DNA from: Nitrospirota bacterium
GTDB lineage: Bacteria > Nitrospirota > UBA9217
Reading direction: 5' to 3'
DNA: 64,000 nucleotides
NCBI GenBank assembly: GCA_963740085.1
Contig: CAVUCU010000007.1
Span: 122,835 to 186,834, forward strand
Numbering within the stretch: position 1 is the stretch's first letter; each line of letters begins with the position of its first letter. The translations under genes were made by a program, and so were the position numbers. Under the pieces are notes generated by a model, which was given only the letters and a program-made list of their open reading frames with translations, did not search any database and was not told where the DNA came from. Positions 18,613-53,223 of the stretch are shown piece by piece.

Positions 18613-18725
18613 TTTAATCCTCCCTTAATCGATGGACGAGGGACGACCGCTCGCTTTCGCTCGCTCGGACGAAAGACGATTCTTTTGCGCGTCCGTCGTC
18701 CCTCGTCTCTCGTCCATCGTGATTG

Positions 18726-19169: not shown

Positions 19170-19263
19170 GGTAATACCCTCCTTTTTTTAATTATGCATG
19201 GCGCATAGCGCATGGTGCATAGGGTTATGTCTCTCTGACTCCTGACTCCTGACTCCTCACGCC

Positions 19264-20529
19264 TCACTGCTTCATCGCCTGCGTCATTGCCTGGGTAAGC
19301 TTCCGTGTGCCGTACTCGAGTTTCTTGGTTCCTGCCGAGGTGAGCGCTCCGGTCTTCTTGAGCGAGAAGATCTCCCGCTCTGCTGCCTCAGCCAGGTCAT
19401 CCTCGCCCAGGTTCAGGAGCACGGTTGCCGCCGACTGGAGCTTCTGCGTGGCTGCCGCGATATTCCCCGCCTCCACCTCGGTGAGCGCCCTGGTCTGGAG
19501 CTTGAAGGCGCTCACCTTCTCTACCAGGTTCATCACCTCGGCGTTCACCTTCGCTGCGGCTGCAGCGTCCTTGGTAAAGGTGACGAACAAATCCGTCTTG
19601 ACGGAGCGGTCCTTGCTGTTCTGCGAGGGGAGGTCATAGCTGACCTCCACCTGCCCAAGTCGGAACTGACCCGCCTTTTGTGCGGGAATTCGCGCTTCTA
19701 TCAAAATTGACTGGCCTTTCCTGCCGTCAAGAGCACCGAGCTCGGTCATGACCGCGCCATTGCGCACGGCCCTCGTGCTCACATCGACGATCAGGGGAGA
19801 GGTGACATATACTTTGTACGGCTTCACACCCCGGCTCATGCGGGCCGTTACCCTGAGGTTCATCGCTGCAACGGCCTGCATGCCCTCCACTTCCTGTTGA
19901 AACGCATCAAGGATAGCGATGGGGTTCTGGATCCAGTGCGAGTTTCCCCGGGATTGCTCGGCAAGCCGGAGCAGGAGTTTCTCGTTCCATTCATTACCGA
20001 TGCCGATGCTCGTTATCGCGATGCCCTGCTTTCCTGCCTCTTCAGCAAGTTTGAGACACACGTCTTCGTCATCCCACGTCTGTCCGTCCGTAAGCAGAAG
20101 GATCCGGTTCACGCGGTCCTTTGCATGGCCCTTCTTCACCTCTGCCAGACCTGCCTTGAGCCCATCAGAGATCTGGGTGCCGCCGCGTGCGATCACGTTC
20201 GCGAGCTTGCCCTTGATCTCCTCGCGATTCTGCGCCGGTTGGCTCGGTATCAGCGTCTCGACCTGATCGTCAAAGATCGTGACGGAGATGAGGTCGTCAT
20301 CGCTCAAATGGTCCACCACGTATCCCACCGCTTCTTTTAAATTGTCCAGTTTCTCGCCATCCATGGAACCGCTCCGGTCGAGCACCAGGCTGAAGTTCGC
20401 CGGCATGTTGCCTGAAACCGGCCCGCTCCCGGCTTTGATGTCAACGAGAGCATAGATTGCCTGTTCCGTCTCTGTGGCCAGCACCGTGTCCTTGCTCATA
20501 ATGCATCGTACCTCTAATCCGTTCTTCAT
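19264..20529 (-). CDS. von Willebrand factor A domain protein (421 aa) with uncharacterised C-terminal helical region
   Basis: MIDAS 'LVLDRSGSMDGEKL' plus 'ISVTIFDDQV' and 'LLLTDGQTWDDE' are present. Confidence 0.8.
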   Translation of the reverse strand: MKNGLEVRCIMSKDTVLATETEQAIYALVDIKAGSGPVSGNMPANFSLVLDRSGSMDGEKLDNLKEAVGYVVDHLSDDDLISVTIFDDQVETLIPSQPAQNREEIKGKLANVIARGGTQISDGLKAGLAEVKKGHAKDRVNRILLLTDGQTWDDEDVCLKLAEEAGKQGIAITSIGIGNEWNEKLLLRLAEQSRGNSHWIQNPIAILDAFQQEVEGMQAVAAMNLRVTARMSRGVKPYKVYVTSPLIVDVSTRAVRNGAVMTELGALDGRKGQSILIEARIPAQKAGQFRLGQVEVSYDLPSQNSKDRSVKTDLFVTFTKDAAAAAKVNAEVMNLVEKVSAFKLQTRALTEVEAGNIAAATQKLQSAATVLLNLGEDDLAEAAEREIFSLKKTGALTSAGTKKLEYGTRKLTQAMTQAMKQ

Positions 20530-20597
20530 TGTCTATTCCTCCTTTGTCATTCGCATGGTGTCTAAGGCATGGAGCATAGGGTGCTGTCCTCCGCCCT

Positions 20598-21554
20598 CTA
20601 TCCCACCGTAACCACTACCGCGGTAATATTGTCCTTGCCGCCATGTGCGTTCGCCAACCGAACCAGTTCCTCACTCGCTGACCGTGCATCTTTTCCGGAT
20701 AAAACGGCCTGGTGAATGTCCTTATCTCTCACCTCTCCCCAGAGTCCATCCGTGCACAGCATGAGATGACCGCCCTTTTTCAGCTCCACCCGGAATGTAT
20801 CCACGGTGATATTCTCATCAGTCCCGATCGTGCGATAGAGCAGATTGGACTTGGGGTGGCCCCTTGCCTCTTCTTTCGTCATTTTCCCAATGGCAACCAG
20901 CTTTGCAACCAGGGAATGGTCCCGGGTGATCTGGGTGATGGACCGTTCTTCTATCCAGTAGACCCTGCTGTCCCCGACATTCGCGATATAGGCGGTATTG
21001 TCAATTACCAGCGCGAGACTGATCGTAGTCCCCATGTTCGATCCCCTGTGCGCGCCCTCTTTTTTCACTTCGCTGTTTGCCTTCCGCACGACATGCTCGA
21101 TGAGCTTGAGTGGGTTCTCGTTCTGCTCCAGATGTTCTTCTATTTCCCTGCAAGCGGTCTCCACCGCGATCCTGCTTGCAACTTCTCCTGCGTCGTGTCC
21201 GCCCATACCGTCAGCCACGACATACAAAGACGCTTTCCCGAAAGAAACACAGGAGAAGCTGTCCTCGTTCTGGGGCCTGACCATGCCCGTGTTCGTCAGA
21301 CCATGCCAGGCATCGGACACTGGTACGGGCACAGGACATCCGGCGTCAAGATCAGCCGCTGCACCTGTCTCAGGCCTCAGCCTCCGCGTATAGGCCGGTT
21401 GGAGCACCTGAGTCATTGATCTGGGTGTCTCTACGAAGGGAAATATTGCCCTTGCTTCAAGAACCTCGTCTGTCAATGTATGCTTTGCAGTTGCCTCCAT
21501 CTTCTCGCCCCTTGTAAACATATTTTTCATCCAGTTTATCCAACCATGTGCCAT
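20598..21554 (-). CDS. PP2C-family Ser/Thr protein phosphatase with N-terminal extension
   Basis: 'VRPQNEDSF', 'VVADGMGGHDAGEVASRIAVE' and 'HGGKDNITAVVV' are present. Confidence 0.8.
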   Translation of the reverse strand: MAHGWINWMKNMFTRGEKMEATAKHTLTDEVLEARAIFPFVETPRSMTQVLQPAYTRRLRPETGAAADLDAGCPVPVPVSDAWHGLTNTGMVRPQNEDSFSCVSFGKASLYVVADGMGGHDAGEVASRIAVETACREIEEHLEQNENPLKLIEHVVRKANSEVKKEGAHRGSNMGTTISLALVIDNTAYIANVGDSRVYWIEERSITQITRDHSLVAKLVAIGKMTKEEARGHPKSNLLYRTIGTDENITVDTFRVELKKGGHLMLCTDGLWGEVRDKDIHQAVLSGKDARSASEELVRLANAHGGKDNITAVVVTVG

Positions 21555-21609
21555 GGTCAGCTCCTGTTCTTTTCATCCGATTCTCAGCTCGCCATCTTGG
21601 TCTACTCAT

Positions 21610-21626
21610 TTGCATCTGCCATGCCA
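21610..21626 (-). promoter_or_regulatory. putative sigma-54 promoter (minus strand reads TGGCATGGCAGATGCAA; GG-N10-GC spacing correct) about 45 nt upstream of the PP2C/vWA/FHA/kinase operon
   Basis: The reverse complement of 21610-21626 matches TGGCAC-N5-TTGCA at 13/16 positions with invariant GG and GC. It is near-identical to the second site at 33919-33934. Confidence 0.5.
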
Positions 21627-22076
21627 GAATTGAAATGAACGATCGCGACGGCACACGGGCAGACAGAAGTCTTTACGATACAGACGGTTGTGGGTATTGA
21701 TGCTGCGGGTGTATTGCTCGGGTGGGGGGGATGATTCGCTGGAAATTATATGGTTATCGAAAGGGGGTATTCGATTTTCGAAGACTAGTGCACGGTAAAA
21801 CTAATTCTTGATTATATTGCACACATATTTATCGTTTATTACCTTGGCATGATTTTAGTTACAGCTAAGTCAATGCATACCTAAAAGGGAAGAATATTTA
21901 ACCGCGAAGGCGCCAAGTACGCGAAGAAAATCTATGGGCTTTTGTTTTAAACACGAAAGCTTTTTTGACGTCCTTTGCGACCCTGGCGCCTTTGCGGTTC
22001 AAAGACTTTGGTTTCGGCTTTTCCGGGTTAGGTAACATGACGGTTCGGAACCATCAACAATTAATTTTATGAGGTA

Positions 22077-28685: not shown

Positions 28686-29555
28686 TTAAGAGGTGGTTGA
28701 TGACAAATTCAAGATCTTGGATTTCACTACATTTTTACCGGTTTCCCTGGCCGAATTCATAAGATCTTCGGCCATAGCGATCAGTTCATCTAATGTGCAT
28801 GTCGGGCCGTCGCAGGTAACGACACCTGTACTGAATGCTACCGGCCAGCCCTTTTTTTTCACCATATCCAGAAGACGTTCCTGAACTTTATAAATGATAA
28901 CCGTGGCGTTCTCATTATTTGTTTCCGGCATAAGAACAGCGAATTTGGAACCCCCAAGTCTCGAAATTATATCTGTGAGCCGCAATGTTGACCCCATGAT
29001 CTGGGCTAATTCATGGAGGAGGTAATCGCCTGCAATATGGCCGAGGGTGTCATTTACCTGTCGTAAATTATCTATATCGATATATGCTAGAGTGAGAGGT
29101 AGTTTAGATATAGTCGATCTGCTGATTTCAATACGTGCCTGCTCATAAAAGAATTTGATATTAGCTACGCCCGTCAAATCGTCGGTGTCGGCATGTTCAT
29201 GTTCCTTTATCAATGATTTTTTTAAGGTTGCAATGGAATAGGCAACGATTAAAAACATACTTAGCACCAGTGTGGCGTTCCAAATGCGAACAGTGATATG
29301 AGAATAATTATGTCCAGACATCAGGTCAGACGTTGCCCAGGTGATAGCACTGAAAATTGATACCAGGACGGTAGGCATTCCTCCCACGTACCAAGCGATC
29401 AGTATGATGGGAAGAAGATAGAGCACATCTAGGGAAATATCATAGCTCGCTATAGTATCAAGACCGCCGATTGCCAATACGAGGAGCAATCCGAAAATCG
29501 TAAGAATTGATTTTGGGAGTTTTTCAGGGAATTCTATGATTTTCTTTATCCGCAT
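28686..29555 (-). CDS. membrane-anchored GGDEF-domain protein with degenerate active site (GGSKF) and intact RxxD I-site
   Basis: Four to five N-terminal TM helices are present. The GGDEF fold has 'RLTDIISRLGGSKFAVLM' (RxxD-xxx-RLGG then S-K-F in place of D/E-E-F). GC content is lower than the flanks. Confidence 0.8.
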   Translation of the reverse strand: MRIKKIIEFPEKLPKSILTIFGLLLVLAIGGLDTIASYDISLDVLYLLPIILIAWYVGGMPTVLVSIFSAITWATSDLMSGHNYSHITVRIWNATLVLSMFLIVAYSIATLKKSLIKEHEHADTDDLTGVANIKFFYEQARIEISRSTISKLPLTLAYIDIDNLRQVNDTLGHIAGDYLLHELAQIMGSTLRLTDIISRLGGSKFAVLMPETNNENATVIIYKVQERLLDMVKKKGWPVAFSTGVVTCDGPTCTLDELIAMAEDLMNSARETGKNVVKSKILNLSSTTS

Positions 29556-29792
29556 AACAGCCGATGCTTGCAGTGGTAGATAATATTAAATGATCTTCTT
29601 TGGCCCGCCCTGTAAGCTAGACCTCGGGTAACGGGATGAGCATTTTCTGTAAAATAGCACTCATCCTTATAGCTATTATTTCTTTGCAGATAATAGCTTA
29701 TGCCTATAAAAATTACTAGTTGAACTATGTACATGAATAGCGTGTTGAAAAAGTACAGGTTACAGGACGTTATATATGCTGCACTCTTCACG

Positions 29793-30593
29793 TTAGGTTC
29801 GACCCTCTGGTTGTTCACCTTCTCGTGCGACGCTGTTTTTCATTCTTACCCACTGGTCTATGAACGTTTGGAGCAACGTTTTATCCTTGTCCGTCAGATC
29901 GACAAACTCCGACCCTATATCATAGTGTGTTTGCCCCTTGTTTTCCTTCATGTGGCATGAAGCAATTCGTCCGATAAAATTGACCGCGGTGCCATCATTC
30001 AGAGACAATTCCATGGGGACCTTGCTTTCTATTGCCAGAGCCTGATCAGTCTGGATGAGCATGCCGCTGAGACTGATTGTTTTCACATTAAAATTCGCGG
30101 GATAGCTCAAAACATGCTCATTCAGACCGGTAATTTGAAATCTGACATTGAGCCTCCGCTCCTCCGGTAATGGCGCTTTTTCTTTTTGGTTTTGCACTAT
30201 TGATTTAAGAAAATCGGCGACCTGATCCGCTGAGCTCTCTTTAAACTGCATGCCTACAGCGTATATGGAGACACTTTCCCCGTTGTCTCTTGCCTCTATT
30301 CCCTTGAGCTCGGAACGGACTATAATGCCCGTTACATTGAGAGTCTTCCCTTTATCCTGGAGCTTGATCGTATATTCCCTGCCGGGATTCAGTCTCCGGT
30401 CCGATTTCAAGGCAACTCCGCCGAGACCGATATCAAGGATCTCCACTTTATCGGATAAACTCATCTTGCCCTTTAAGTCATTTAACTCCAGGTAGTATCT
30501 TTTATGTCGTCTCGTGTTGTTCATGATAGGTTTCTTCTCAATTGACAAGTTGTCAGAATACTCATTCTGAGAGCTCATGTCTACAAAAGCCAT
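29793..30593 (-). CDS. tandem PilZ-domain protein
   Basis: PilZ 1 has 'RRHKR' (RxxxR) and 'DIGLGGVAL'. PilZ 2 has 'RRLNVR' and 'ISLSGML' (partly degenerate). Confidence 0.75.
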   Translation of the reverse strand: MAFVDMSSQNEYSDNLSIEKKPIMNNTRRHKRYYLELNDLKGKMSLSDKVEILDIGLGGVALKSDRRLNPGREYTIKLQDKGKTLNVTGIIVRSELKGIEARDNGESVSIYAVGMQFKESSADQVADFLKSIVQNQKEKAPLPEERRLNVRFQITGLNEHVLSYPANFNVKTISLSGMLIQTDQALAIESKVPMELSLNDGTAVNFIGRIASCHMKENKGQTHYDIGSEFVDLTDKDKTLLQTFIDQWVRMKNSVAREGEQPEGRT

Positions 30594-30650
30594 GGATTAC
30601 TCCTGGCTTAATCAGTCTTGACCTGCGCAATCTATTCATGGTTCCATCCC

Positions 30651-31133
30651 TTACGTCATGATCGTGACGTTTTCGATCGCGCTCCCCACGACAAAGACCC
30701 TTTTGTTATTGCTATCTTCGTCAACGGGGATGAGGAAAAACCCCTTGGCCCCCTTGCCCAGCTTGGATAGGGAAAACCCCTTGTCCCAGGGGATCTCACC
30801 CTCGATGAACCCGACCAGCGATTCTTTATCGATGAACTTAACAAAAACCTTTCGGCCAAGGTTCTTCCTGCTCCCGAAAACCTTCCGTTCGACATATCGA
30901 CTGGAGCCCTCAAAGCTCTTGACGAAAAAAATCGCCTTCAGCTCTTCCATCGGGACGCGGTTTTCCTTGTTTGTCTGGTCACTCATGATGAGCGTGTCCG
31001 ATTCTATACTGAAATTTCTCACGAAGCCCTTCAAAAGTCTTCCGTCCCTGAACCTGGCGACGATCTTTTCTCCTTCATTATTTTTCAAACAGTCACCTCC
31101 GGAGCACCGATTAATTGTTCCCAGGATACTCAA
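30651..31133 (-). CDS. uncharacterised conserved protein (160 aa), family A paralog 2
   Basis: It shares motif blocks with the 3929-4357 product ('VARFRDGRLLKGFVRNF', 'LKAIFFVKSFEGSS', 'GFFLIPVDEDSNNKRVFVV'). Confidence 0.6.
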   Translation of the reverse strand: MSILGTINRCSGGDCLKNNEGEKIVARFRDGRLLKGFVRNFSIESDTLIMSDQTNKENRVPMEELKAIFFVKSFEGSSRYVERKVFGSRKNLGRKVFVKFIDKESLVGFIEGEIPWDKGFSLSKLGKGAKGFFLIPVDEDSNNKRVFVVGSAIENVTIMT

Positions 31134-31145
31134 TCTGGGAATAAT

Positions 31146-31481
31146 TCAACCAACAAACCGGCCAAGCAGTATATCCTCAAGATTGCGTCTTGCATCGAGG
31201 ACGGCGAGAACATATACAGTTTGGCCGGATATTCTGCAAATCATTCTCCAGGGGGCAATGATTATTTCCCGATAGAGAATAATGCCCTGTTCCTTCAACT
31301 CAGGCACAACAACGCGGCCTCTTTCCGGCAGGACATGCAAGCCAACCGCCTTCTTGCGCATTCTTTCCACTATCTTCAGCGCCTCATCGATACTGTCTTC
31401 GGCGATAAATCCGATGATTGAATCCAAATCATACTCAGCGGTGGCCGTCCATTTGACGGTAAAGTTACGACTCATCGGCAT
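31146..31481 (-). CDS. ParE/RelE-family type II toxin
   Basis: The approximately 110-aa product has a ParE-like composition ('WTATAEYDLDSI', 'ERGRVVVPELKEQGII'). It overlaps the upstream Phd/YefM gene by 17 nt. Confidence 0.65.
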   Translation of the reverse strand: MPMSRNFTVKWTATAEYDLDSIIGFIAEDSIDEALKIVERMRKKAVGLHVLPERGRVVVPELKEQGIILYREIIIAPWRMICRISGQTVYVLAVLDARRNLEDILLGRFVG

Positions 31482-31764
31482 TTCGCTGTTTCCTGGCCTT
31501 CAGCTTGTGCTCAAGACGTTTGAAAATATCCTCCTGTTCACTGGTCCTTCCAAGACGAATATCCTCTTCTCCCTGAGCAAGGACCTTCATCAAACCTATT
31601 GCGGACTTCATGCGCTCATACGATTCAGGGTCTTGCAGAACGGCGCGTGGTTCCCCGTTTTGCGTGATAATGACCGGCCTGTGCGTTTCATTGATCTGCA
31701 GCAATATATCCGCGGCCTTTGATTTGAGATACGTCACGGGTCGAATGTCTTCACTGATTTTCAT
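31465..31764 (-). CDS. Phd/YefM-family antitoxin
   Basis: 'MKISEDIRPVTYLKSKAADILLQINETHRPVIITQNGEPRAVL' is the Phd/YefM fold signature. The ORF-track start at 31833 is an over-extension. Confidence 0.75.
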   Translation of the reverse strand: MKISEDIRPVTYLKSKAADILLQINETHRPVIITQNGEPRAVLQDPESYERMKSAIGLMKVLAQGEEDIRLGRTSEQEDIFKRLEHKLKARKQRNADES

Positions 31765-31881
31765 TCTCCACCTCCTGTCCGAATAACGTACCATAAAAGG
31801 TCCTTTAACGCAAGCGGCTTTTTCGGTCATCAAATGACTTTACGCCCATGGGTTAAACTTTAAGCGTGGCGATATCTCCAG

Positions 31882-32273: not shown

Positions 32274-33665
32274 ATGTCTTTTTCAAAATTGCAGCTCATC
32301 GAACCGATCCTGAAAGCAATAAAACTGTGCGGCTACACCACGCCCACGCCCATCCAGGAGCAGGCTATTCCCAAGGCACTGGCGGGTCAAGACCTGATCG
32401 CAACAGCCCAGACCGGGACCGGCAAAACCGCGGCCTTCGTGTTGCCGGCGCTCCAGCGTTTGAGCGTACCCTCCATAGCAGCGGGACGGTCCAAAGGACC
32501 CCGCGTACTCGTACTGACACCCACGCGCGAACTGGCCAATCAGATAACCGAGGCGGTCAGAACCTACGGCAAGTTCATGCGCATCCGGAGCGGCGCGATC
32601 CTCGGCGGCATGCCCTACTTCGAACAGCAGCGTCTTCTGTCCCAGCCGGTGGATCTGATCGTAGCCACACCCGGACGTCTCATGGACCATATGGAGCGGG
32701 GACAGATCAATTTCTCGCGCCTCGAACTGCTCGTGCTCGATGAGGCTGATCGCATGCTCGACATGGGATTCAGCGAGGCAGTGGACACCATCGCGGCCGC
32801 GACCCCGGCCACGCGCCAGACCATGATGTTCACCGCAACCATGGACAATTCGATGGCTAGGCTTGCCCAGCGTCTGCTCAAGGACCCGGTACGGGTCGAG
32901 ATCGCCGGCAAGAAGACCACCCTTGAAACGATCGAACAGCGCCTTCACGCGGCCGACGACATGCAGCATAAGAACCGCATGCTCAAACACCTGATCTCGG
33001 ACAGCGGCATGACCAGGGCGATCATCTTCTCGGGCACCAAACGAAACGCCGACCAGCTGGCGAACGAACTGCACGCCCAGGGCCACTCAGCCGCGGCGCT
33101 GCACGGCGACATGAGCCAGAACGCCCGCAACCGCACCATCATGAACATGAAGCGCGGCAAGATCCGGCTGCTCGTTGCAACAGACGTGGCCGCACGCGGG
33201 CTTGACGTCATCGGCATCACCCATATCATCAATTACGACCTTCCGAAGAATGCCGAGGACTACGTACATCGCATCGGTCGCACCGGGCGTGCAGGTGCAA
33301 CAGGCATCGCCATCTCCTTCGCGTCGTCCAGGGAAGTGGACTCCCTGCGCAGTATCGAACGCTATATCGGACAAAGCATTCCCCAGCAGATCATTGCGGG
33401 ACTGGAACCGGCGCGCCCCTTACGCCGGTCAAGCAGCGGGGGCAGTCCGACGCCGTCATCGGGGAAACGATGGCAGGGCGCCTCGACCGGCAAACGGTAT
33501 GGCCAGAACGCCGCACCCCGAAGTCCCTTTGGTTCGAAAACCACCCGTCGCTCGGATTCTGATGGCCGATTCTTCAGAGACGAGAAGAAGAGTGTCAAGC
33601 AGGATGGCGGGAAGTTTGGGGATTTCCGCAAGCCAAAGCAATACAGTCAGAGCCGGTGGACCTAG
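32274..33665 (+). CDS. DEAD-box ATP-dependent RNA helicase (RhlE-like) with basic C-terminal tail
   Basis: Q-motif, 'AQTGTGKT', 'PTRELA', 'DEAD', 'SAT' and 'HRIGRTGRAG' are present. Confidence 0.9.
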   Translation: MSFSKLQLIEPILKAIKLCGYTTPTPIQEQAIPKALAGQDLIATAQTGTGKTAAFVLPALQRLSVPSIAAGRSKGPRVLVLTPTRELANQITEAVRTYGKFMRIRSGAILGGMPYFEQQRLLSQPVDLIVATPGRLMDHMERGQINFSRLELLVLDEADRMLDMGFSEAVDTIAAATPATRQTMMFTATMDNSMARLAQRLLKDPVRVEIAGKKTTLETIEQRLHAADDMQHKNRMLKHLISDSGMTRAIIFSGTKRNADQLANELHAQGHSAAALHGDMSQNARNRTIMNMKRGKIRLLVATDVAARGLDVIGITHIINYDLPKNAEDYVHRIGRTGRAGATGIAISFASSREVDSLRSIERYIGQSIPQQIIAGLEPARPLRRSSSGGSPTPSSGKRWQGASTGKRYGQNAAPRSPFGSKTTRRSDSDGRFFRDEKKSVKQDGGKFGDFRKPKQYSQSRWT

Positions 33666-33692
33666 TCAAGATCAGGATATATCATTGCTCGG

Positions 33693-33725
33693 AAGGCGCC
33701 TCACCTTGAGGCGCCTTTTTTTTTA
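33693..33725 (+). terminator. rho-independent terminator (AGGCGCCTCA / TGAGGCGCCT stem + T9)
   Basis: The hairpin and T-run are visible 28 nt after the helicase stop. Confidence 0.6.
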
Positions 33726-33918
33726 CGATCATCTCCCTTTATTATTGTAGTGAGCGCCGTAAGCCTTCGGGTCGCCTCTCGATGCCTCTCCCTTTATTTC
33801 AGTAGAAACCTGGCGCACAGAACATTTTTTTGCATTCTTTAAAATTCGATCCGATATTTTCTCATCTTTGCAAAGCAACTTACTCCCCGCTTCTAAATAA
33901 ATTCAACCAGTTGCGTTT

Positions 33919-33934
33919 TGGCATGCTAGATGCA
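33919..33934 (+). promoter_or_regulatory. putative sigma-54 promoter TGGCATGCTAGATGCA (GG-N10-GC)
   Basis: It lies 40 nt upstream of the AAGGAGG-ATG of the first small membrane protein gene. It is near-identical to the minus-strand site at 21610-21626. Confidence 0.5.
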
Positions 33935-33973
33935 ATAACCAAAGCAAGACACTGCGAAAAGGAGGAAACGAAA

Positions 33974-34297
33974 ATGAAAAACACACTTGCAAGAAAAACA
34001 GCGTACATCGGGGCCGGTGCGGGTTTGGTGCTCTTCGCGATCTTCGGACTTCTCCCGGGCAGTTTGATTGGCGGAGCGGCCGGACTAAAATTAGTTGGTA
34101 TGCTCTTCAACCAGACTCTTGAGGCGGGGATCATCTCGCGGGGCATCGTACTGGCATCCATGCTCATGGGCGTCGTGGTCTCAGGTATCGCCGTCGTGAC
34201 GGCTACGTCAACCACAGGATGGCTTCTGGGAAGAGTGATAGAGGCATCGGTACACCAAGCCGATCCGGAAGCAGCAGTTGTCGTCAGAAATCAATAA
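33974..34297 (+). CDS. small glycine-zipper membrane protein (107 aa), paralog 1 of tandem pair
   Basis: AAGGAGG RBS is present. Two hydrophobic Gly-rich helices are predicted. It is similar to the downstream ORF. Confidence 0.6.
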   Translation: MKNTLARKTAYIGAGAGLVLFAIFGLLPGSLIGGAAGLKLVGMLFNQTLEAGIISRGIVLASMLMGVVVSGIAVVTATSTTGWLLGRVIEASVHQADPEAAVVVRNQ

Positions 34298-34351
34298 TCG
34301 GTCAAGAAGATCGAGATTAAACTAAACAGCTGAGGCTGGAAGGAGATTATC

Positions 34352-34669
34352 ATGAAGAACGAAACGGTAAAAGCGGGTATGAAGATCGGTGCAACGGTAG
34401 GTGGTTTGGTTTTCCTGGTGTTTGGCATCATGCCGGGGTTCTATTTCGGCAGCTTCGGAACTCTGGTCCTGCTCCAGAAGTTGATGGGAGGCCCGGTTGA
34501 GCCGACCCTCTTCGTCAGGGCCGCCGTGGTGATGGGAATCGTGGTTGGGATCGCCTGTGCAGCGACAGTGAGCGTTGTGATAGGAGGACTCGCCGGCACG
34601 GTCGCCGGGTATGTGGTATCGGCGCCTGCTGCATTGCGGGGGAAACAAGCTGCTGAGGAAAAAGCCTAA
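34352..34669 (+). CDS. small glycine-zipper membrane protein (105 aa), paralog 2
   Basis: GGAGA RBS is present. The helix layout and motifs match the 33974-34297 product. Confidence 0.6.
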   Translation: MKNETVKAGMKIGATVGGLVFLVFGIMPGFYFGSFGTLVLLQKLMGGPVEPTLFVRAAVVMGIVVGIACAATVSVVIGGLAGTVAGYVVSAPAALRGKQAAEEKA

Positions 34670-34812
34670 GTGCGACAGGGGAATCAATCGCCAGGAGTCA
34701 TGAGGACACCGGGAAACGAGCGCAGCACAGTAAACAACCAATAGCTATCAGCTATGAAGCTGAAACAGAAGGCGGTGAGCAATCACCGCCTTTTTATTTT
34801 TAGAGAGACCAC

Positions 34813-36159
34813 TTAGCGACCGGTAACACGCGGACGGCTCGGTTTAAACGTTCGCGTACCGGAGGGACGGGACGTACCAAAAGAACGCGGGGAAGCATCA
34901 TGCGGTCTTGCCCCGGCGTGTGCCGGTTTGTGGGTTTCCGCAACCTTACCCCTTGCAGGCTTTGTAACGGGACGCTCCCGGCGGCGCTGCGGTTCGCGCG
35001 GCGGGCGGGCAAACTCGGAATCCCGTGTCGGCGCGGCTTTTCTGTAATCAAAGTCTTTCAGGAACCGGCGCTCGACCTTCTCGCCGAGCACGCGCTCGAT
35101 GCTCCTGACCAGGGGCTCGTCTTCACGGGTAACAAAGGTGAATGCGTCGCCGGTTTTCGCGGCCCGGCCGGTCCGGCCGATACGGTGCGTATAAGCATCC
35201 GTGGTGTCGGGAATGTCGTAGTTGATGACATGGGATATGCTCGAAACATCGATTCCGCGGGCCGCGATATCGGTTGCCACAAGGATCTGATACGATCCGT
35301 CTCTGAACCCGTCGAGCGCCGCCTGGCGCTTGTTCTGCGACAAGTTGCCCTGGAGCGATGCGGCCCTGAAACCCGCCTTTTCCAGCTGTTGTCCAATGCG
35401 CTTGGCCCGGTGCTTCGTCCGCGTAAAGATCAGGATGGATTCCGTATCCGTATGTTTGAGGAGTTCCATGAGAAGCGCTGTCTTAAGATGCTGTTCGACC
35501 GGATAGAGCGCGTGCGATACCGTGTTCGCCGGTGCCGCATGGCCGATCTGCACCGTGACCGGGTCGTGCTGTACTTCGCGCACCAGTTTCCGGATGTCAT
35601 CGGGCATCGTGGCCGAGAACAACAGGGTCTGTCTTTTTGCCGGTACCTGCTTGATGATCTTCCGGATATCGGGCAGGAAACCCATATCGAACATGCGATC
35701 CGCCTCGTCCAACACAAGCACCTCCACATGCGACAAGTCGATCGTTTTCTGATTGAGGTGGTCGAGCAAACGGCCCGGGCAGGCCACGACGATCTCGACA
35801 CCGGCACGCAGTTTCTGTATCTGGGGGTTTACGCCTACGCCGCCGTAAATGGTCGCGCTGCGCAATTTCGTGTCGCGGCCGAGCGCGACAATGGCCACGT
35901 GCGTCTGCTCGGCAAGTTCCCGAGTCGGAGCTATGATCAGTGCGCGGACACGGCCGCGCGGTCCCTTCAACAGGTGTTCAAGGATCGGCAGAACAAAAGC
36001 GGCCGTCTTCCCGGTCCCCGTCTGCGCCAGACCCATGACATCGCGCCCCTGCAGGACCGGCGGGATCGCCTCGTTCTGAATTGGCGTCGGGGTGGTATAG
36101 CCGAGCGCCTTAATGCCGGCTGAGATGCTCGGATGGAACTTGAATGGCTCGAATTTCAA
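34813..36159 (-). CDS. DEAD-box ATP-dependent RNA helicase (second, RhlE-like) with Arg-rich C-terminus
   Basis: 'AQTGTGKTAAF', 'DEAD', 'SAT' and 'HRIGRTGRA' are present. Confidence 0.9.
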   Translation of the reverse strand: MKFEPFKFHPSISAGIKALGYTTPTPIQNEAIPPVLQGRDVMGLAQTGTGKTAAFVLPILEHLLKGPRGRVRALIIAPTRELAEQTHVAIVALGRDTKLRSATIYGGVGVNPQIQKLRAGVEIVVACPGRLLDHLNQKTIDLSHVEVLVLDEADRMFDMGFLPDIRKIIKQVPAKRQTLLFSATMPDDIRKLVREVQHDPVTVQIGHAAPANTVSHALYPVEQHLKTALLMELLKHTDTESILIFTRTKHRAKRIGQQLEKAGFRAASLQGNLSQNKRQAALDGFRDGSYQILVATDIAARGIDVSSISHVINYDIPDTTDAYTHRIGRTGRAAKTGDAFTFVTREDEPLVRSIERVLGEKVERRFLKDFDYRKAAPTRDSEFARPPREPQRRRERPVTKPARGKVAETHKPAHAGARPHDASPRSFGTSRPSGTRTFKPSRPRVTGR

Positions 36160-36250
36160 TGTGGCTCCTTACGATAAATGCTACAACATACTTCCGGGAA
36201 CACAAAACCGCCTGACAGCAGATAGCTTAATGTACACTCGTGTAGCTGGT

Positions 36251-36282
36251 TAATAAAAAAGGCCCCGGATCGCTCCGGGGCC
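36251..36282 (-). terminator. rho-independent terminator for the csp gene (GGCCCCGGA / TCCGGGGCC stem + T-run on minus strand)
   Basis: The hairpin sits 40 nt downstream of the csp stop and is followed by A7 on the plus strand (T7 on minus). Confidence 0.55.
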
Positions 36283-36321
36283 TTTGGAGTGGTTATATAA
36301 ATATTTTTTTTAGAGTCGCTC

Positions 36322-36522
36322 TTAGGCTTTGGCTACATTCGCCGCCTGAAGACCCTTGGGACCCTTTACGACTTCGAAGGTCACCTTGTCACCCTCGTTC
36401 AGGGACTTGAAACCGTCGCCCGAAATTGCCGAAAAGTGCACAAACACATCCTCACCGTTCTCCTGCGTGATAAAACCGAACCCCTTGCTGTTGTTGAACC
36501 ACTTCACTACACCGTTTGCCAT
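36322..36522 (-). CDS. cold-shock protein, CspA family
   Basis: '[15 protein letters not shown]' (RNP1) and 'VFVHFSAI' (RNP2) are present. The product is 66 aa. Confidence 0.9.
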
Positions 36523-36580
36523 TTCTGTTTCTCCTCTGTTTCTAAATTGAAATTGTCCGGGAATTTTCCGCGGATAGGTA

Positions 36581-36609
36581 AGAATACCGTTTTCCCCGTA
36601 CTATGTCAA
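36581..36609 (-). promoter_or_regulatory. putative sigma-70 promoter of csp (minus strand TTGACA-17 nt-TATTCT), giving an approximately 75-nt 5' UTR
   Basis: The hexamers were read directly. A long leader is typical for csp genes. Confidence 0.4.
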
Positions 36610-36668
36610 GCTGATAATTGCAAAAAACGACCCCTATAAAAAAGTTACCAGAACGGTGAACGTGCAAT

Positions 36669-44370: not shown

Positions 44371-46347
44371 TTACAGTTTTCCCTTCACCAGGTTATTCAC
44401 CACCGATGGATCAGCCAGCGTCGAGGTATCGCCGAGTTCATCTATCTGGCCGTGCGCGATCTTCCGCAGGATGCGGCGCATGATCTTGCCGCTCCGCGTC
44501 TTCGGGAGTCCGGGCGCGAACTGCAGCTTGTCCGGAGTGGCGATCGGCCCGATGACCGAACGGACATGACCGGTGAGTATCTTCTTGAGCTCATCGGTCG
44601 GCTTGAATCCGTCCTTGAGTGTCACGTAAACATAGATCCCTTCGCCCTTGATGTCATGCGGATAGCCGACCACTGCGGCCTCGGCGACCGCTTCGTGGCT
44701 GACGAGCGCGGACTCGACCTCGGCCGTGCCGAGCCGGTGTCCGGACACGTTGATCACATCATCTACGCGGCCCATGAGCCAGTAATCGCCGCTCTCGTCC
44801 ACCCGCGCGCCGTCACCGGTAAAGTACTTGCCCGGGAACCTGCTGAAGTAGACCTCTTTGATGCGCTTGTTCTCGGGATCGCCGTAGGTGCCGCGTAGCA
44901 TGCCGGGCCAGGGCTTATTGATGCATAGGTATCCGCCCTCGTTTGCACCGGCCGGCGAACCGTCTTCTTTTACTACCTGGGGTACGACCCCGGGGAACGG
45001 TCTCGTTGCCGAACCTGGCTTAGCCGTGATCGCGCCGGGAAGCCCGGTGATCAGGATTCCGCCGGTCTCGGTCTGCCACCACGTGTCAACGATCGGTACT
45101 TTTTCCCTGCCCACAAACTTATGGTACCACATCCACGCCTCGGGATTGATGGGCTCGCCCACGCTTCCAAGGACCTTCAGGGACGACAACTCGTGGCTGG
45201 TCACCCACTTATCCCCTTCTTTCATCAGGGCGCGGATCGCCGTGGGTGCGGTATAGAAGATATTCACCCGATGTTTGTCCACAATGTCCCAGAACCTGCC
45301 CGGATCGGGATAGCTCGGGATGCCCTCGAACATGAGCGACGTCGCTCCGTTCGAAAGCGGTCCGTAGAGGATATAGCTGTGGCCCGTGACCCATCCGATG
45401 TCGGCGGTGCAGAAGTGGATGTCCTCATCATGGTAGTCGAAGATCCACCGGAAGCTCAAATTGGTATAGAGCATGTAACCAGCCGTGGTGTGCAGCACTC
45501 CCTTGGGTTTTCCCGTGGAGCCGGAGGTGTAGAGGATGAAGAGCGGGTCCTCAGCGTCCATCTTCTCGGGCTCGCAATAATTGGCGATGTCCTTCCCTGC
45601 CATCTCCTCATGCCACCAGGTGTCCCTGCCCGGTTCCATGTTTATCTTGCCCGTGCCTGCCCGCTGAACCACGATCATGTCCTTGACCGTCGGGCATTCA
45701 AGGATCGCCTCATCGGCGTTCGCCTTCAAAGGCACGTACCGGCCGCCACGGACCCCTTCGTCCGCGGTGATGACCATGGATGACTGGCAATCCTGGATGC
45801 GGTCACGCATTGCCTTCGCGGAAAAACCGCCAAACACCACGCTGTGTATCGCGCCCACCCGGGCGCAGGCCAGCATGGAGATGGCAAGCTCCGGGATCAT
45901 CGGCAAATAGATGGTGACCCGGTCTCCCTTCTTGATGCCCTTCTTCTTGAGAACGTTGGCGAAGCGGTTCACCTCGGTGTAAAGCTGCTGGTAGGTGAAG
46001 GTCTTGTATTCCCCGCCATCTGACTCCCAGATGAGCGCCGCCTTGTTGCGCGTCGTAGTATTGATGAACCGGTCAAGGCAGTTCACCGAGGCATTCAACT
46101 TACCACCGCTGAACCACTTGATATACGGCTTGTGAAAATCATAGTCCAGGACCTTGTCCCACTTTTTGTACCACGTGAGGTTCTTCTCAGCCATCTCGGC
46201 CCAGAACTTGTCGGGCTCGTCTATGGACCTCTTGTAGATCTTTTCGTACTCCTTCATGCTCTTGATATGAGCTTTTGCGCTGAACTCCTTTGATGGGGGA
46301 AACTCTCTTTTTTCCGTTGATAGGACCTGGATGCTTTCATCAGCCAT
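44371..46347 (-). CDS. acs: acetyl-CoA synthetase
   Basis: 'MADESIQ...', AMP-binding '[13 protein letters not shown]', 'YWLMGRVDD' and the C-terminal Lys context are present. The true start at 46347 follows an AGGAG RBS. Confidence 0.9.
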
Positions 46348-46515
46348 GAAGAATTCTCCTTTCAAAATGGGGGGAATAAATAAAAAGCGGTGAAGCGGGA
46401 GATTGAATGGTCCTGTTCCCCGTTCACCGATACACCGATGCAAGTATAGCAATATTTTCCGCAGTTGTCCTGAAAAAACCGGACACCCTGTTTCCAGGGC
46501 ATCCGGTTGAACTGA

Positions 46516-48327
46516 TCATTTAAAATGTTCGATCTCTCTGGGATACCGGAGGTTCTGCACCATCTCCTGAACCTGCTGCGGCGGTTCCTTCGTCACCATC
46601 GAGATGACGAACATGACAATGAAGTTGATGCACATACCGATGGTGCCGATGCCTTCAGGCGAGATGCCCCAAAGCCAGTTGCTGGCATTGTTCGCCCCAG
46701 GATTGACGAACTTGAAGTAAATGATATACGCGGCGGTAAAGGCAATCCCGCTCAGCATGCCGAGCATGGCGCCTTCCTTGGTTGCCCGCTTCCAGAAGAT
46801 GCCCATGATGATCACCGGGAAGAAGGATGATGCCGCAAGACCGAAGGCAAAGGCCACGACCTGCGCCACGAATCCCGGAGGGTGGATGCCGAAATAACCG
46901 GCGATAACGACTGCCCCACCGGCCGAGGCCCTGGCCCAGATCAGTTCGCCTTTCTCCGAAATGTCCTTCTTTGCTATGGACTTGACAAGGTCATGTGAAA
47001 TGGCCGCAGCGATAACGAGAAGCAGTCCGGCGGCAGTCGAAAGAGCAGCGGCCAGACCTCCCGCAGCAACAAGGGCGATGACCCATGCGGGGAGCTTCGC
47101 AATCTCAGGGTTGGCAAGCACCATGATATCATTATCGATATACAACTCGTTCGTACTTTTATCGTCTAGGGGCGTCGTAACAATGTTCTCGCCGTACTGG
47201 CCGACCTTAAATGCGCCAGCCGCGTCCTTCTCAAATGCGACCTTGCCCTTGAAGGCATTGCCTTTTGCATACTGGATCTTGCCGTCGTTGTTCTTGTCCT
47301 TCCAGGCGACCAAACCGGTTTTCTCCCAGTTCTTGAACCAGGACGGGGCCTCAGCATAGGTCTTGTTGTTCAACGTGTTTATCATGTTGATCCGGGCAAA
47401 GGAAGCAACTGCCGGTGCCGTGGTGTACAGGATTGCGATGAAAAGCAGTGCCCAGCCGGCCGAAGCGCGGGCGCCCTTGATCGTCGGTGTCGTGAAGAAG
47501 CGGATGATGATGTGAGGAAGACCGGCGGTTCCGACCATGAGCGCGAAGGTGATCATGAACACGTCGATCGTGCTCTTCGCGCCTCCCGCAGTATAGGCCC
47601 TGAAACCGAGATCTATCTGGATCTGGTTAAGCTTTTCAAGCAGATAGCCACTGCCGGTCCCCAGAATCTTCATGCCGTTCTCGCTCAGACTGCTGCCGTA
47701 GCCGAACTGTGGGATCGGGTTGCCGGTGAGCATGATCGAAATGAAGATCGCCGGGATCATGTATGCCATGATCAGCACGCAGTACTGCGCCACCTGTGTA
47801 TAGGTAATGCCCTTCATGCCTCCCAGCACGGCATAGAAGAAGACGATGGCCATACCGATCAGAACGCCGGTGTTGATGTCCACTTCGAGGAAGCGCGAGA
47901 ACACCACGCCCACGCCGCGCATCTGACCGGCGACATAGGTGAATGAAACGAAGATCGCACAGACCAAGGCTACGACTCTCGCGGACTGCGAATAATATCG
48001 TTCACCCACGAACATGGGGACCGTGTATTTCCCGTATTTGCGCAGGTAGGGGGCCAGGAGCATGGCAAGCAGCACGTAGCCGCCTGTCCAGCCCATGAGA
48101 TACATGGAGCCGTCCCTGCCCATGAACGAGATAAGGCCCGCCATGGAAATAAAGGAAGCCGCCGACATCCAGTCGGCGCCGGTGGCCATACCGTTCAGTA
48201 CCGGATGTATCTGCTTGGCAGCAACATAGAACTCACCCGTCGTCTTGGCCTTCGCCCAGAAAGCGATGCCGATATAGAGGGCAAAGGATGCCCCCACAAT
48301 AATCCACGTCCATGTTAATATATTCAT
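46516..48327 (-). CDS. sodium:solute symporter family cation/acetate symporter (ActP-like)
   Basis: This is an SSS-family topology of approximately 14 TM helices ('GMATGADWMSAASFISMAG'). It is adjacent to acs. Confidence 0.85.
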   Translation of the reverse strand: MNILTWTWIIVGASFALYIGIAFWAKAKTTGEFYVAAKQIHPVLNGMATGADWMSAASFISMAGLISFMGRDGSMYLMGWTGGYVLLAMLLAPYLRKYGKYTVPMFVGERYYSQSARVVALVCAIFVSFTYVAGQMRGVGVVFSRFLEVDINTGVLIGMAIVFFYAVLGGMKGITYTQVAQYCVLIMAYMIPAIFISIMLTGNPIPQFGYGSSLSENGMKILGTGSGYLLEKLNQIQIDLGFRAYTAGGAKSTIDVFMITFALMVGTAGLPHIIIRFFTTPTIKGARASAGWALLFIAILYTTAPAVASFARINMINTLNNKTYAEAPSWFKNWEKTGLVAWKDKNNDGKIQYAKGNAFKGKVAFEKDAAGAFKVGQYGENIVTTPLDDKSTNELYIDNDIMVLANPEIAKLPAWVIALVAAGGLAAALSTAAGLLLVIAAAISHDLVKSIAKKDISEKGELIWARASAGGAVVIAGYFGIHPPGFVAQVVAFAFGLAASSFFPVIIMGIFWKRATKEGAMLGMLSGIAFTAAYIIYFKFVNPGANNASNWLWGISPEGIGTIGMCINFIVMFVISMVTKEPPQQVQEMVQNLRYPREIEHFK

Positions 48328-48417
48328 TCAATTCTCCTTTCAAGATACAGTGTCATCCACTGAGAAGGGCAGAAAGCTCTGCCGTATTCCGGCGGACACG
48401 GCCGCCGGGCGCCCACC

Positions 48418-48678
48418 CTACTTTTCGTGTACGTCGTATTTGATATCCAGATGGTTCATGAGCTTCACATAGACGAGGATGAGGATCACGAAGATGACCT
48501 CTGATCCCTGGTTCGCGAACCAGAACCCCAGCGGGAAGCCGGCAATCTTGATAGTGTCCAGCGCGTCGGCAAAAATAATACCGCAGAGATAGGAAACAGT
48601 GAACCAGATGCTGAGCAGGATCACAATGTACGTCAGATTCTCCTTCCAGTACGCTGCTTGATTCAATTTTGTAGCCAT
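48418..48678 (-). CDS. DUF4212-family protein, putative solute symporter small subunit
   Basis: The 86-aa two-TM protein carries 'GFPLGFWFANQGS' and sits immediately upstream of the SSS symporter. Confidence 0.6.
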   Translation of the reverse strand: MATKLNQAAYWKENLTYIVILLSIWFTVSYLCGIIFADALDTIKIAGFPLGFWFANQGSEVIFVILILVYVKLMNHLDIKYDVHEK

Positions 48679-48818
48679 ACGATTCCTCCTTTATACTCGC
48701 TTAGATTATGATCTTGCATATAGTCGCTGATAGTTCATACCTTGCTGATGCAATATCGTTTCTTCCCGTCACCCCCCTCCTGAAGAAAAAACATCCTATA
48801 CAAGCTTCATGGACACTC

Positions 48819-49544
48819 TCACGGGCTTCCTATTCTGAGCAGATCGTCCACGGTCCTTATGCCCCACTGCGGCAGTTCGCCGAGCATGCGCTGCAAGAGC
48901 TGAGCGGTAATGAACGCATCGCTCAGAGCATTGTGTGCATTCTGCACGGTTATATTATATTCTGCGGCGATCGAGAAGAGATCGCCCCTGTCCGGAGAAC
49001 CGCCGTGATAGGCGCAACGGTCTTCTTTCCTGGCAGCGATCCAATTGTAGAGTTTGTACGTATCAACCACCCGGTTCCTCAACGGCTTCCCGTACAGTTC
49101 CTTCATCTCCCGGTTCAGGAACTGGAGATCGATGGACACGACATGGCCTGCCATAAGCGAGTCATCGCAGAACTCAAGGAACTGCGGGAGCAGGGTGTCG
49201 ATCCGGGGCGATCCAGCCGCTTCCGTGGGCGTGATCCCGTGGATGATCACGCTCCCCGCGGTCAGTGCCGTGCGGGGATCGACCTGGCCGTAGAACGTTT
49301 CTCCCAGGAGTATCCTCCCGCCGCGTACCTTCACGGCTCCGATCGAGACAATGGAATCCTTTTTTGCCTTGAGTCCGGTGAGCTCCGTATCGAAGACCAC
49401 AAAGTTCGCGTTACGCAGGTCTTCAGCTTTATCTCCGGAGCGAAGCCCTGCGGACGACGTCCCTTGCCGCTGATCGGACTGACCTGCACCCGCCCCGTCC
49501 CTGCCGAAGAATGTGCTCGTATAGTGGATGAATGAACTTATCAT
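48819..49544 (-). CDS. DEDD-family 3'-5' exonuclease (DnaQ/Pol III epsilon-like)
   Basis: Exo I 'FVVFDTELTGL', Exo II 'MAGHVVSIDLQFL' and Exo III 'YHGG...HNALSDAFITAQL' are present. Confidence 0.8.
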   Translation of the reverse strand: MISSFIHYTSTFFGRDGAGAGQSDQRQGTSSAGLRSGDKAEDLRNANFVVFDTELTGLKAKKDSIVSIGAVKVRGGRILLGETFYGQVDPRTALTAGSVIIHGITPTEAAGSPRIDTLLPQFLEFCDDSLMAGHVVSIDLQFLNREMKELYGKPLRNRVVDTYKLYNWIAARKEDRCAYHGGSPDRGDLFSIAAEYNITVQNAHNALSDAFITAQLLQRMLGELPQWGIRTVDDLLRIGSP

Positions 49545-51556: not shown

Positions 51557-52014
51557 TTATGCATGCTCACTGACTTACGGAAATTACAAGAAAATGCTGT
51601 TATTTACCTTTTCACGTTTTACTCGGCGACAATGCGATAAATTACATAAAATCAATATGTTTTGTTGTCTTCTCTGTAGCCTGTGACAAAAATAGCAGTA
51701 GAATGCATTATGGTGCATAATGGGAATTTATAGAGGTTCACACTTTATAAATATGGACTAAAAAAAATTCTTCACCGCGAATTCATATGATGAAGTCATA
51801 TACTTTAAGGCAGCCATCTCATCCGTAACTAATAGTAATATGCGCCGTGCAGGCAGGCTACTAAAGGTAACCGGGATGGCCGCCAGTAATTTCACACAGT
51901 ATACTTAAACTATGCTTATAATAAATCATCGTGATCACGCATCTGTCCAATTCACTTAACAACGGCTCGATCATTTGTTAGTATTGAACGAACCAATTAT
52001 TTGGGAAAGGTCAT

Positions 52015-53209: not shown

Positions 53210-53223
53210 CGCCTCCTCCTAAT

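Follow-up and report, generated by a model that had tools for sequence, protein, structure and literature searches.

A sigma-54 cassette for paired glycine-zipper membrane proteins in Nitrospirota, with a possible respiratory role

In a 64-kb stretch of DNA from a Nitrospirota bacterium (hereafter, the window), we examined two adjacent genes, sp1 and sp2, which encode small membrane proteins and lie between two genes for DEAD-box RNA helicases (helA and helB), with a cold-shock-domain gene (csp) beyond the second helicase. Judged by comparison of homologous loci, enhancer, promoter, sp1, sp2, and terminator form a self-contained, autonomous cassette of ~0.97 kb that extends from 33829 to 34794. 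Our preferred reading, which we consider reasonably probable, is that this is a self-contained sigma-54 cassette for paired membrane proteins with a redox- or energy-related respiratory role. The first-pass annotation had instead taken the helicases, csp, and the small membrane proteins together as a cold-adaptation block. All the elements that it listed are present in the sequence where it had placed them, but the block did not hold up as a functional unit: The cassette is autonomous, its neighbors carry signals of their own, and its relatives sit in respiratory operons.

The comparison covered homologous loci that we labeled L001 onward. A scan of one genome per species yielded 80 loci, nearly all from Nitrospirota metagenome-assembled genomes and often several per genome, and a total of 83 sp1-type loci was used in the counts. 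Promoter and enhancer statistics refer to 77 distinct upstream regions, terminator statistics refer to 72 distinct cassettes, and pattern counts in related loci cover 1.07 Mb of sequence. One 2.3-kb locus labeled Gallionella sp. (L006; JBARHM010000435.1) contained sp1, sp2, and helB at 78 to 90% identity to Nitrospirota loci; this contig was probably mis-binned from Nitrospirota and does not count as evidence of the sp family in Gallionella.

A conserved sigma-54 control region precedes sp1

The elements of the cassette, all on the forward strand, are as follows.

33829-33844, +: predicted enhancer site UAS1, TTTGCATTCTTTAAAA, a dyad of the type TTYGCA-N4-T[AG]nnAA
33859-33874, +: predicted enhancer site UAS2, TTCTCATCTTTGCAAA, of the type TTCTCA-N4-TGCAAA
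33901-33913, +: predicted integration host factor (IHF)–like site, ATTCAACCAGTTG, with one mismatch to the IHF core consensus WATCAANNNNTTR
33919-33934, +: sigma-54 −24/−12 promoter, TGGCATGCTAGATGCA, 39 nt before the sp1 ATG, with the start of transcription predicted near 33945
33974-34297, +: sp1, encoding a membrane protein of 107 aa whose two long hydrophobic helices are of the glycine-zipper type
34352-34669, +: sp2, a paralogue of sp1 (105 aa) that lies 54 nt after it and has a ribosome-binding site of its own
34767-34794, +: cassette terminator, from a terminator scan, with the hairpin core GGCGGTGAGCAATCACCGCC at 34771-34790

Sigma-54 promoters are marked by GG and GC doublets that lie exactly 10 nt apart (TGGCAC-N5-TTGCW) 5′ of a gene start, and TGGCATGCTAGATGCA at 33919-33934 has this doublet spacing. 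Within the window, the number of such motifs did not exceed chance: The strict pattern matched twice versus 0.61 expected, a count that was reached in 8 of 100 shuffles, and a looser scan gave 10 matches versus 9.5 expected. It is thus only the comparative data that make the sigma-54 promoter compelling. The sequence TGGCAY-N6-TGCA was found before the sp1 ATG in 79 of the 83 loci, mostly at a distance of 37 to 42 nt. The near-consensus promoter that the first-pass annotation had pointed out was thus borne out. The −24/−12 elements were invariant over the 77 distinct upstream regions, which stem from several genomic contexts, while the spacer between them varied; in a motif-anchored alignment, the core carried 2.0 bits of information and the spacer 0.1 to 0.5 bits. 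A sigma-70 promoter for sp1 (TTGCAT-17-GATATT, inside and after UAS1) was also considered and was rejected, as its −10 part is not conserved.

The region upstream of the promoter was similarly constrained. Relative to the T of TGGCA, 76 of 77 distinct loci had UAS2 at −60/−59, with nine of its bases invariant, and UAS1 was located at −90/−89 in 54 of 77, the two sites being 29 to 31 bp apart; a control region of equal size held a dyad match in 3 of 77 loci. In several loci, both dyads were perfect palindromes (TTTGCA-N4-TGCAAA), and when up to two mismatches to this palindrome were allowed, the entire window contained two matches, namely, UAS1 and UAS2. The composite pattern of UAS2 and promoter occurred 81 times in the 1.07 Mb of related loci, each time immediately 5′ of sp1, so that no other target of this combination was found there. 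Between UAS2 and the promoter, an IHF core was observed at a fixed position (−18), exact in 19 and with at most one mismatch in 59 of the 77 loci, versus a background of 0.0005 per position. From these conserved sites, the case is very strong that sp1-sp2 is a sigma-54–driven pair with a textbook activator-dependent architecture, in which activator binding and sigma-54 dependence are predicted.

No rpoN gene was seen within the 64-kb window, but the window does contain two genes for sigma-54 activators, and this organism thus uses sigma-54. An activator gene lay within 7 kb of the cassette in only 1 of 83 loci. A hint as to the type of activator comes from Vibrio qrr1, where the enhancer sites are TTGCAWWWTGCAA for LuxO and TTCTCANNNTGMDWN for SypG (PMC10162802). 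UAS1 and UAS2 share the half-sites TTGCA/TGCAA and TTCTCA with these enhancers, and at qrr1, too, two sites lie 5′ of a sigma-54 promoter; the spacer, however, is 4 nt in the sp1 dyads versus 3 nt at qrr1, and the organism and the targets are unrelated. By analogy, this likeness suggests that the activator of the sp1 cassette may be an NtrC-family response regulator. Our literature searches found no published description of the sp family or of its enhancer.

The same cassette recurs at several genomic positions

By clustering the neighboring open reading frames, we could distinguish at least three recurrent positions of the cassette. Position A, to which the window belongs, has the order helA, sp pair, helB, csp, and a BcrAD-type activase (~19 loci). 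Position B lies between the divergent rpsB-tsf-pyrH-frr and rplM-rpsI-argC-argJ clusters (16 loci), and position C is located beside an opp-type ABC ATPase and TPR genes (15 to 17 loci), while ~30 further loci carry the cassette elsewhere. Since the same cassette is found among such unrelated neighbors, the helicases and csp are merely neighbors of it. Beyond the cassette itself, several loci (L011, L020, L042, L050, L061, and L079) have another conserved sigma-54 promoter, with a canonical TTGCT at −12, on the minus strand 3 to 4 kb 5′ of the pair; at position C, this TTGCT-type promoter sits before a conserved gene whose product starts with M..R(Y/F)QRTIK.

Several assembled genomes contained three to five copies of the cassette. 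The copies within a genome were 95 to 99.9% identical, but only over 0.7 to 0.95 kb, with unrelated flanks. Such near-identical sets (L029/L032, L036/L037/L041, L046/L048, L042/L044, L047/L050, and L064/L066) occupied different positions that are themselves conserved among species. The identical tract extended to the terminator hairpin from UAS1 or from a point between the IHF-like site and UAS2. The copy at position A stood apart, with 72 to 81% identity to the copies at positions B and C. We saw no inverted repeats or target duplications at the edges of the identical tracts. Recent transposition of the cassette is therefore disfavored: No terminal repeats were seen, and positions B and C are common to many species, a pattern that gene conversion between fixed sites fits better. 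The tract boundaries and copy identities thus point to concerted evolution, by gene conversion, of a promoter-plus-operon unit. The terminator hairpin (GGCGGTGAG-AATCACCGCC) was conserved in sequence as well, being found behind sp2 in 28 of the 72 cassettes and only three more times in 1 Mb (31 occurrences in all), and it may serve purposes other than termination, for example RNA stability or protein binding.

sp1 and sp2 belong to a membrane-protein family of its own

The first-pass annotation had described two paralogous glycine-zipper proteins of ~105 aa between the helicases, and this description held: The proteins are 107 and 105 aa long and 32% identical (E = 3e-8), and both contain GxxxGxxxG motifs along with two hydrophobic segments of 36 to 39 residues each. 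The true start of sp1 is the ATG behind an AAGGAGG site and not the TTG at 33830. The ratio of nonsynonymous to synonymous substitution rates was 0.13 to 0.28 for sp1 and 0.07 to 0.18 for sp2, and by this sequence measure, both are real genes under purifying selection. An sp2 homologue followed sp1 in ~75 of 83 loci, the exceptions being truncated contigs or degenerate copies.

Homologue clusters numbered 1383 for sp1 and 1074 for sp2, none of them with a Pfam domain, and a profile search of 1.84 billion representative proteins gave 361 clusters (E ≤ 1e-3; clusters at 50% identity). Searches of Pfam, NCBIfam, and PDB sequences with sp1, sp2, and 89 diverse relatives returned no significant match, and the sp family is thus new in the sense that neither Pfam nor NCBIfam has a model for it. 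Sub-threshold matches to Oleosin, DUF456, Gly-zipper, and Romo1 were rejected as identifications, being compositional only. The Pfam families Gly-zipper_YMGG, Gly-zipper_Omp, and Romo1 do resemble the sp proteins in size and in their GxxxGxxxG hydrophobic helices, but the sp proteins fall far below the curated cutoffs (13.9 bits versus a gathering score of 28.9 for the Gly-zipper families, YMGG and others, with weak matches in only 7 of 89 members), so that the likeness is one of composition and not of membership. Neither Multi_Drug_Res (SMR) nor CRCB (Fluc) gave a match at E ≤ 1 among the 89 members. Modeling with AlphaFold2 yielded two helices for sp1 (residues 4 to 44 and 54 to 96) and four long helices for a natural double fusion (predicted template modeling score, 0.54), and a Foldseek comparison of both models with the PDB found nothing above a template modeling score of 0.22.

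The family is modular. The members found in the profile search include polypeptides with two or three sp repeats, as well as C-terminal fusions of the sp domain to PilZ or to a nucleotidyltransferase. In P0311, P0336, P0351, P0378, and P0379 (L084), a single sp domain is followed by a C-terminal nucleotidyltransferase of ~300 aa (NTP_transf_2), and in P0327, P0352, and P0363 (L085), it is followed by a C-terminal PilZ domain, which binds cyclic di-GMP. Upstream of the L084 fusion gene lie TTCGCA dyads, a sigma-54–like promoter, and an IHF core without mismatch. As the fused PilZ and nucleotidyltransferase domains are cytoplasmic, the C terminus of sp is placed in the cytoplasm, and its N terminus is positively charged. 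With the near-constant tandem pairs, the double and triple fusions, and the arrays of up to four paralogues described below, these features make it most likely that sp1 and sp2 assemble as a hetero-oligomeric bundle of helices in the cytoplasmic membrane, their N and C termini facing the cytoplasm. That the two work as a pair is reasonably supported.

Glycine zippers are frequent in channel-forming helices, and we therefore considered a heteromeric channel or pore, in which the glycine-zipper helices would form a small ion-conducting or holin-like assembly. The GxxxGxxxG ladders in both long helices would suit such a structure, as would the weak sub-threshold similarity to Gly-zipper, Romo1, and holin families, but these similarities lie far below the family cutoffs (as in the 13.9 versus 28.9 bits given above), conserved charged or polar pore-lining residues are not evident, and the genes have no lysis-gene or transporter context. 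We regard a channel as very unlikely.

Distant relatives head electron-transfer gene clusters

In all the distant loci with readable neighbors, genes of the sp family were found at the head of electron-transfer gene clusters. In L085, the PilZ-sp fusion, an sp1-like gene, and an sp2-like gene are followed, 20 nt on, by a seven-haem cytochrome c with a C-terminal membrane helix and then by a cytochrome b/DUF4405 gene. In L087 and L090, the stop codon of a doubly fused sp gene overlaps the start of the seven-haem cytochrome, with DUF4405/Ni_hydr_CYTB next; the L090 cluster lies directly after genes for a periplasmic binding protein, a histidine kinase, and a response-regulator sigma-54 activator. 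The sp pair of L064 and L074 adjoins the same two cytochromes (seven-haem c and cytochrome b/DUF4405). In L107, from a deltaproteobacterium, the sp gene precedes a fused cytochrome b/multihaem c, a cytochrome c, a histidine kinase, and a response regulator. Last, in L108 to L110, from Nitrospirae, a cytochrome c gene and four tandem sp genes are followed by Fer4_11, NrfD, molybdopterin oxidoreductase, and cytochrome c genes, the four tandem paralogues occurring in L108 and L110.

Where upstream sequence could be read, a sigma-54 promoter was present in all the distant respiratory loci. L108 and L110 had the enhancer type of the sp1 cassette (TTTGCA/TTCTCA-N4-TGCAAA), and L087 and L090 had a different dyad, TGTAG-N8-CTACA. 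In L107, an exact tandem duplication of ~60 bp (~4025-4145) contains the sigma-54 promoter TGGCCATCCTCTTGCA and thereby places two promoter copies before the sp gene.

This layout recalls the cbcBA operon of Geobacter sulfurreducens (GSU0597-GSU0593), which has a sigma-54 promoter upstream of GSU0597 and the order of two small hypothetical open reading frames, a seven-haem cytochrome c with a C-terminal membrane anchor, and a di-haem cytochrome b (bioRxiv 10.1101/2021.04.15.440034). The operon needs BccR, a sigma-54 activator of the response-regulator type, and is induced only at low redox potential, to more than 12,000 reads per kilobase per million mapped reads (bioRxiv 10.1101/2021.04.15.440034). 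L085, L087, L090, L064, L074, and L107 match this layout, in which small open reading frames of the GSU0597/GSU3489 type come first, a likeness of position and regulation only. The Geobacter operon has a receiver-domain gene, GSU0596, as an extra feature. Unlike cbcBA, the window cassette stands alone, without cytochrome genes, and such cassettes are present in multiple copies in several related genomes.

Because the distant members of the family head respiratory cytochrome operons, we favor a redox or energy response over a cold response. For the window pair itself, a respiratory or redox role is guilt by association with these distant relatives, and we propose it with low to moderate confidence. 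The course of events would be as follows. An NtrC-family enhancer-binding protein, encoded elsewhere, would bind the two dyads, centered ~110 and ~80 nt before the predicted start, while an IHF-type bending protein would bind beside the −24 element. The activator would then remodel the sigma-54 RNA polymerase held at TGGCAT-N6-TGCA, giving a bicistronic sp1-sp2 mRNA that would end at the conserved hairpin terminator. The two products, each with two glycine-zipper helices of ~40 residues, would join into a membrane helix bundle. The cassette may thus represent a stand-alone, dosage-amplified form of a small membrane component that is induced together with a respiratory program for redox or energy limitation. 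A more specific version, which we put forward tentatively and with less than even expectation, is that sp proteins are small hairpin membrane partners of Cbc and NrfD-type quinone-linked complexes, whether as a subunit, an assembly factor, or a sensor, and that in one Nitrospirota clade they became detached and were amplified by gene conversion to three to five or more near-identical cassettes.

Several observations weigh against the respiratory cassette that we favor. Respiratory genes are absent from the surroundings of the window copy, and the whole 64 kb yielded no cytochrome homologue. The structure models of sp1 and of the double fusion have low confidence (predicted local-distance difference test scores of 67 and 64, respectively) and no fold match. 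Many of the 83 loci are mutually related, so that the counts are partly nonindependent. Moreover, the synteny with a helicase and csp is kept over 19 loci, down to 55% sp1 identity, which could be taken as a weak hint of a functional tie.

The control region also invites comparison with the phage-shock-protein (Psp) system. In Escherichia coli, sigma-54, PspF, and IHF drive the psp regulon (pspABCDE and pspG). The sp cassette is similar in its sigma-54 promoter, tandem enhancers, IHF site near the promoter, and small integral membrane products. By analogy with PspG and PspBC under sigma-54/PspF/IHF control, the pair could belong to an envelope-stress module and stabilize a damaged or de-energized membrane, and the multiple copies do hint at a need for bulk product. 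Yet, no Pfam match to PspB, PspC, or any Psp family was found for sp1, sp2, or the 89 relatives; the proteins also show no similarity to PspG, and the gene neighbors are others than in E. coli. No pspA or pspF gene recurs beside the cassette, and the recurrent partners of the distant relatives are cytochromes and NrfCD-type complexes and not Psp proteins. A Psp-like module thus appears unlikely.

If the more specific version, with sp proteins as partners of Cbc and NrfD-type complexes, is true, bulk sp product would be needed when a single redox- or energy-sensing activator fires. The analysis defines a widespread, unannotated membrane-protein family, and the complete control region (enhancer motif, IHF-like site, and sigma-54 core) offers a handle on a hidden regulon of uncultured Nitrospirota. 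Should the Cbc link hold, the two “hypothetical proteins” at the start of the strongly induced Geobacter cbcBA operon would gain a role as partners, and a low-redox-potential response shared across phyla would be indicated.

Helicases and csp are separate neighboring units

The neighbors of the cassette in the window are as follows.

32274-33665, +: helA, a DEAD-box RNA helicase of 463 aa with a basic C-terminal tail (Pfam DEAD and Helicase_C); a neighbor of the cassette, not part of it
33691-33719, +: intrinsic terminator of helA, a 13-pair stem followed by a T run
34813-36159, −: helB, a DEAD-box RNA helicase of 448 aa with a TTG start and a basic tail (Pfam DEAD and Helicase_C); a neighbor of the cassette
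36258-36609, −: autonomous csp unit, with promoter, leader, gene, and terminator
36609-36581, −: csp sigma-70 promoter, TTGACA-17-TATTCT, conserved in 16 orthologous loci
36522-36322, −: csp, encoding a cold-shock-domain protein (CSD, E = 5.5e-30)
36285-36258, −: csp terminator hairpin, a 12-pair stem

Both helicases matched Pfam DEAD and Helicase_C with E values of 1e-52 to 1e-32, and their tails carried 21 K+R versus 7 D+E in 88 aa and 19 K+R versus 6 D+E in 73 aa. The DEAD-box assignment and the basic tails noted by the first-pass annotation thus stand, while its naming of the helicases as RhlE-like does not: The best NCBIfam matches were to CsdA, SrmB, RhlE, and CshA, every one below its equivalog cutoff, with 414 and 417 bits for RhlE versus a cutoff of 743 and similar scores for the others. 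As neither protein reaches any equivalog cutoff, “DEAD-box RNA helicase” is as far as naming can go, and no named member was reached at the NCBIfam equivalog level by csp either.

For csp, the promoter, the gene at 36322-36522, and its own terminator proved to be as first annotated, and the product is a cold-shock-domain protein of ~70 aa. The long 5′ untranslated region that had been ascribed to it was not found. The predicted leader is ~52 nt and is conserved, together with the promoter, in the 16 loci, whereas the E. coli cspA leader is ~160 nt. The Rfam cspA thermoregulator (RF01766) scored 59.5 bits versus a gathering score of 78, in a match that took in, besides a csp leader far shorter than that of the model, the coding region and the terminator. 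An Rfam scan of the whole window gave nothing at gathering scores. Within 36523-36609 (−), the promoter, an A/T-rich upstream tract, and the 52-nt leader are near-invariant in the 16 loci, and the leader holds a small hairpin (UCCGCGGA...UCCCGGA) with an unexceptional predicted fold (z = −1.3).

With terminators of their own for helA and csp, an own ribosome-binding site for helB, and an own conserved promoter for csp (the only sigma-70 promoter identified among the three genes), the “block” is four separate transcription units. We conclude that helA, helB, and csp are ordinary neighbors, separate units with their own signals, that flank one of several conserved positions of the cassette.

These results bear on the notion of one cold-shock island, in which the helicases and csp would act together with the small membrane proteins, the pair adapting the membrane. 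In E. coli, the cold-shock response classically involves DEAD-box helicases and proteins of the CspA family, and the neighbors of the pair belong to the same broad families as the E. coli set (CspA, DeaD/CsdA, SrmB, and RhlE). The order helA-pair-helB-csp is kept in ~19 related loci, and many of the genomes were obtained from temperate or cold soils, from groundwater, or from glacier-fed streams. Against this, the same cassette occurs at the rpsB/rplM, opp, and other positions without helicases or csp, five loci (L030, L069, L075, L078, and L080) lack helB although their synteny is otherwise kept, and neither the enhancer nor the sigma-54 motif is present at any helicase or csp. The separate signals of all the units and the short csp leader below the Rfam threshold speak against it as well, and the distant sp relatives are in respiratory operons and not in cold-shock contexts. 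A common cold-shock function is accordingly quite unlikely, and a “cold-shock island” inferred from gene names alone is misleading here.

On the other side of helA, a Phd/YefM antitoxin and ParE toxin pair (31146-31833, −) lies directly upstream, with DUF6982, PilZ, and GGDEF genes beyond it (28686-31133).

A second sigma-54 promoter and signaling genes elsewhere in the window

A further sigma-54–type promoter, unlinked to the sp cassette, is located before a signaling operon.

21611-21626, −: second sigma-54–type promoter, TGGCATGGCAGATGCA, 57 nt before the PP2C gene
21554-20598, −: PP2C phosphatase gene, followed by VWA, FHA/VWA, and Ser/Thr kinase genes in an operon at 21554-15046
21770-21782, −: candidate enhancer of the PP2C promoter, the palindrome TTCGAAAATCGAA (TTCGA-N3-TCGAA), ~156 nt upstream

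This second site had been reported by the first-pass annotation and is indeed present, with a core that is conserved in four orthologous loci; its coordinates are corrected here to 21611-21626 and its strand is given as minus. The TTCGA-N3-TCGAA palindrome was conserved in L091 to L094 and was unique in the window, where 0.01 occurrences would be expected by chance. Just past the end of the PP2C operon, and convergent to it, lies a gene for an FHA-domain sigma-54 activator (13462-14811, +), which has the loop GAFTDA instead of GAFTGA and is the obvious candidate regulator of the operon. The region 10608-21800 as a whole has the appearance of a Ser/Thr-phosphorylation signaling island, with a kinase (10608-12059, −), the FHA activator, and the PP2C operon.

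The first-pass annotation had also supposed that one activator may serve both promoters of the window. The two indeed have TGGCATG-N4-AGATGCAA in common, and both show [A/C]TGCA at −12, where 12 other sigma-54–like sites of related loci use TTGCT. However, this shared 16-mer is the element that sigma-54 itself reads, not an activator site, and it therefore cannot tell which activator is used. The two promoters also differ in their conserved upstream dyads, with TTYKCA-N4-TGCAAA at approximately −90 and −60 for sp1 versus TTCGA-N3-TCGAA ~156 nt upstream for PP2C. Neither the sp1 dyads nor the IHF-like site was found in the four orthologous loci, no further copy of the sp1 enhancer motif exists in the window, and the adjoining FHA-domain activator is a better candidate for the PP2C/FHA/kinase operon. 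The supposition of a common activator was thus abandoned as highly improbable.

The second activator gene of the window, for a response-regulator sigma-54 activator (53419-54795), lies next to one for a CbrA-like “transceptor” histidine kinase with SSF, PAS, and HisKA domains (54918-57875). This sensor-activator pair adjoins genes for an acetyl-CoA synthetase, an SSF-family transporter, and a cNMP/CBS/DUF294 nucleotidyltransferase, and the whole region (44371-57875) resembles a carbon-control module of the CbrAB type, here in the genome of a Nitrospirota bacterium.

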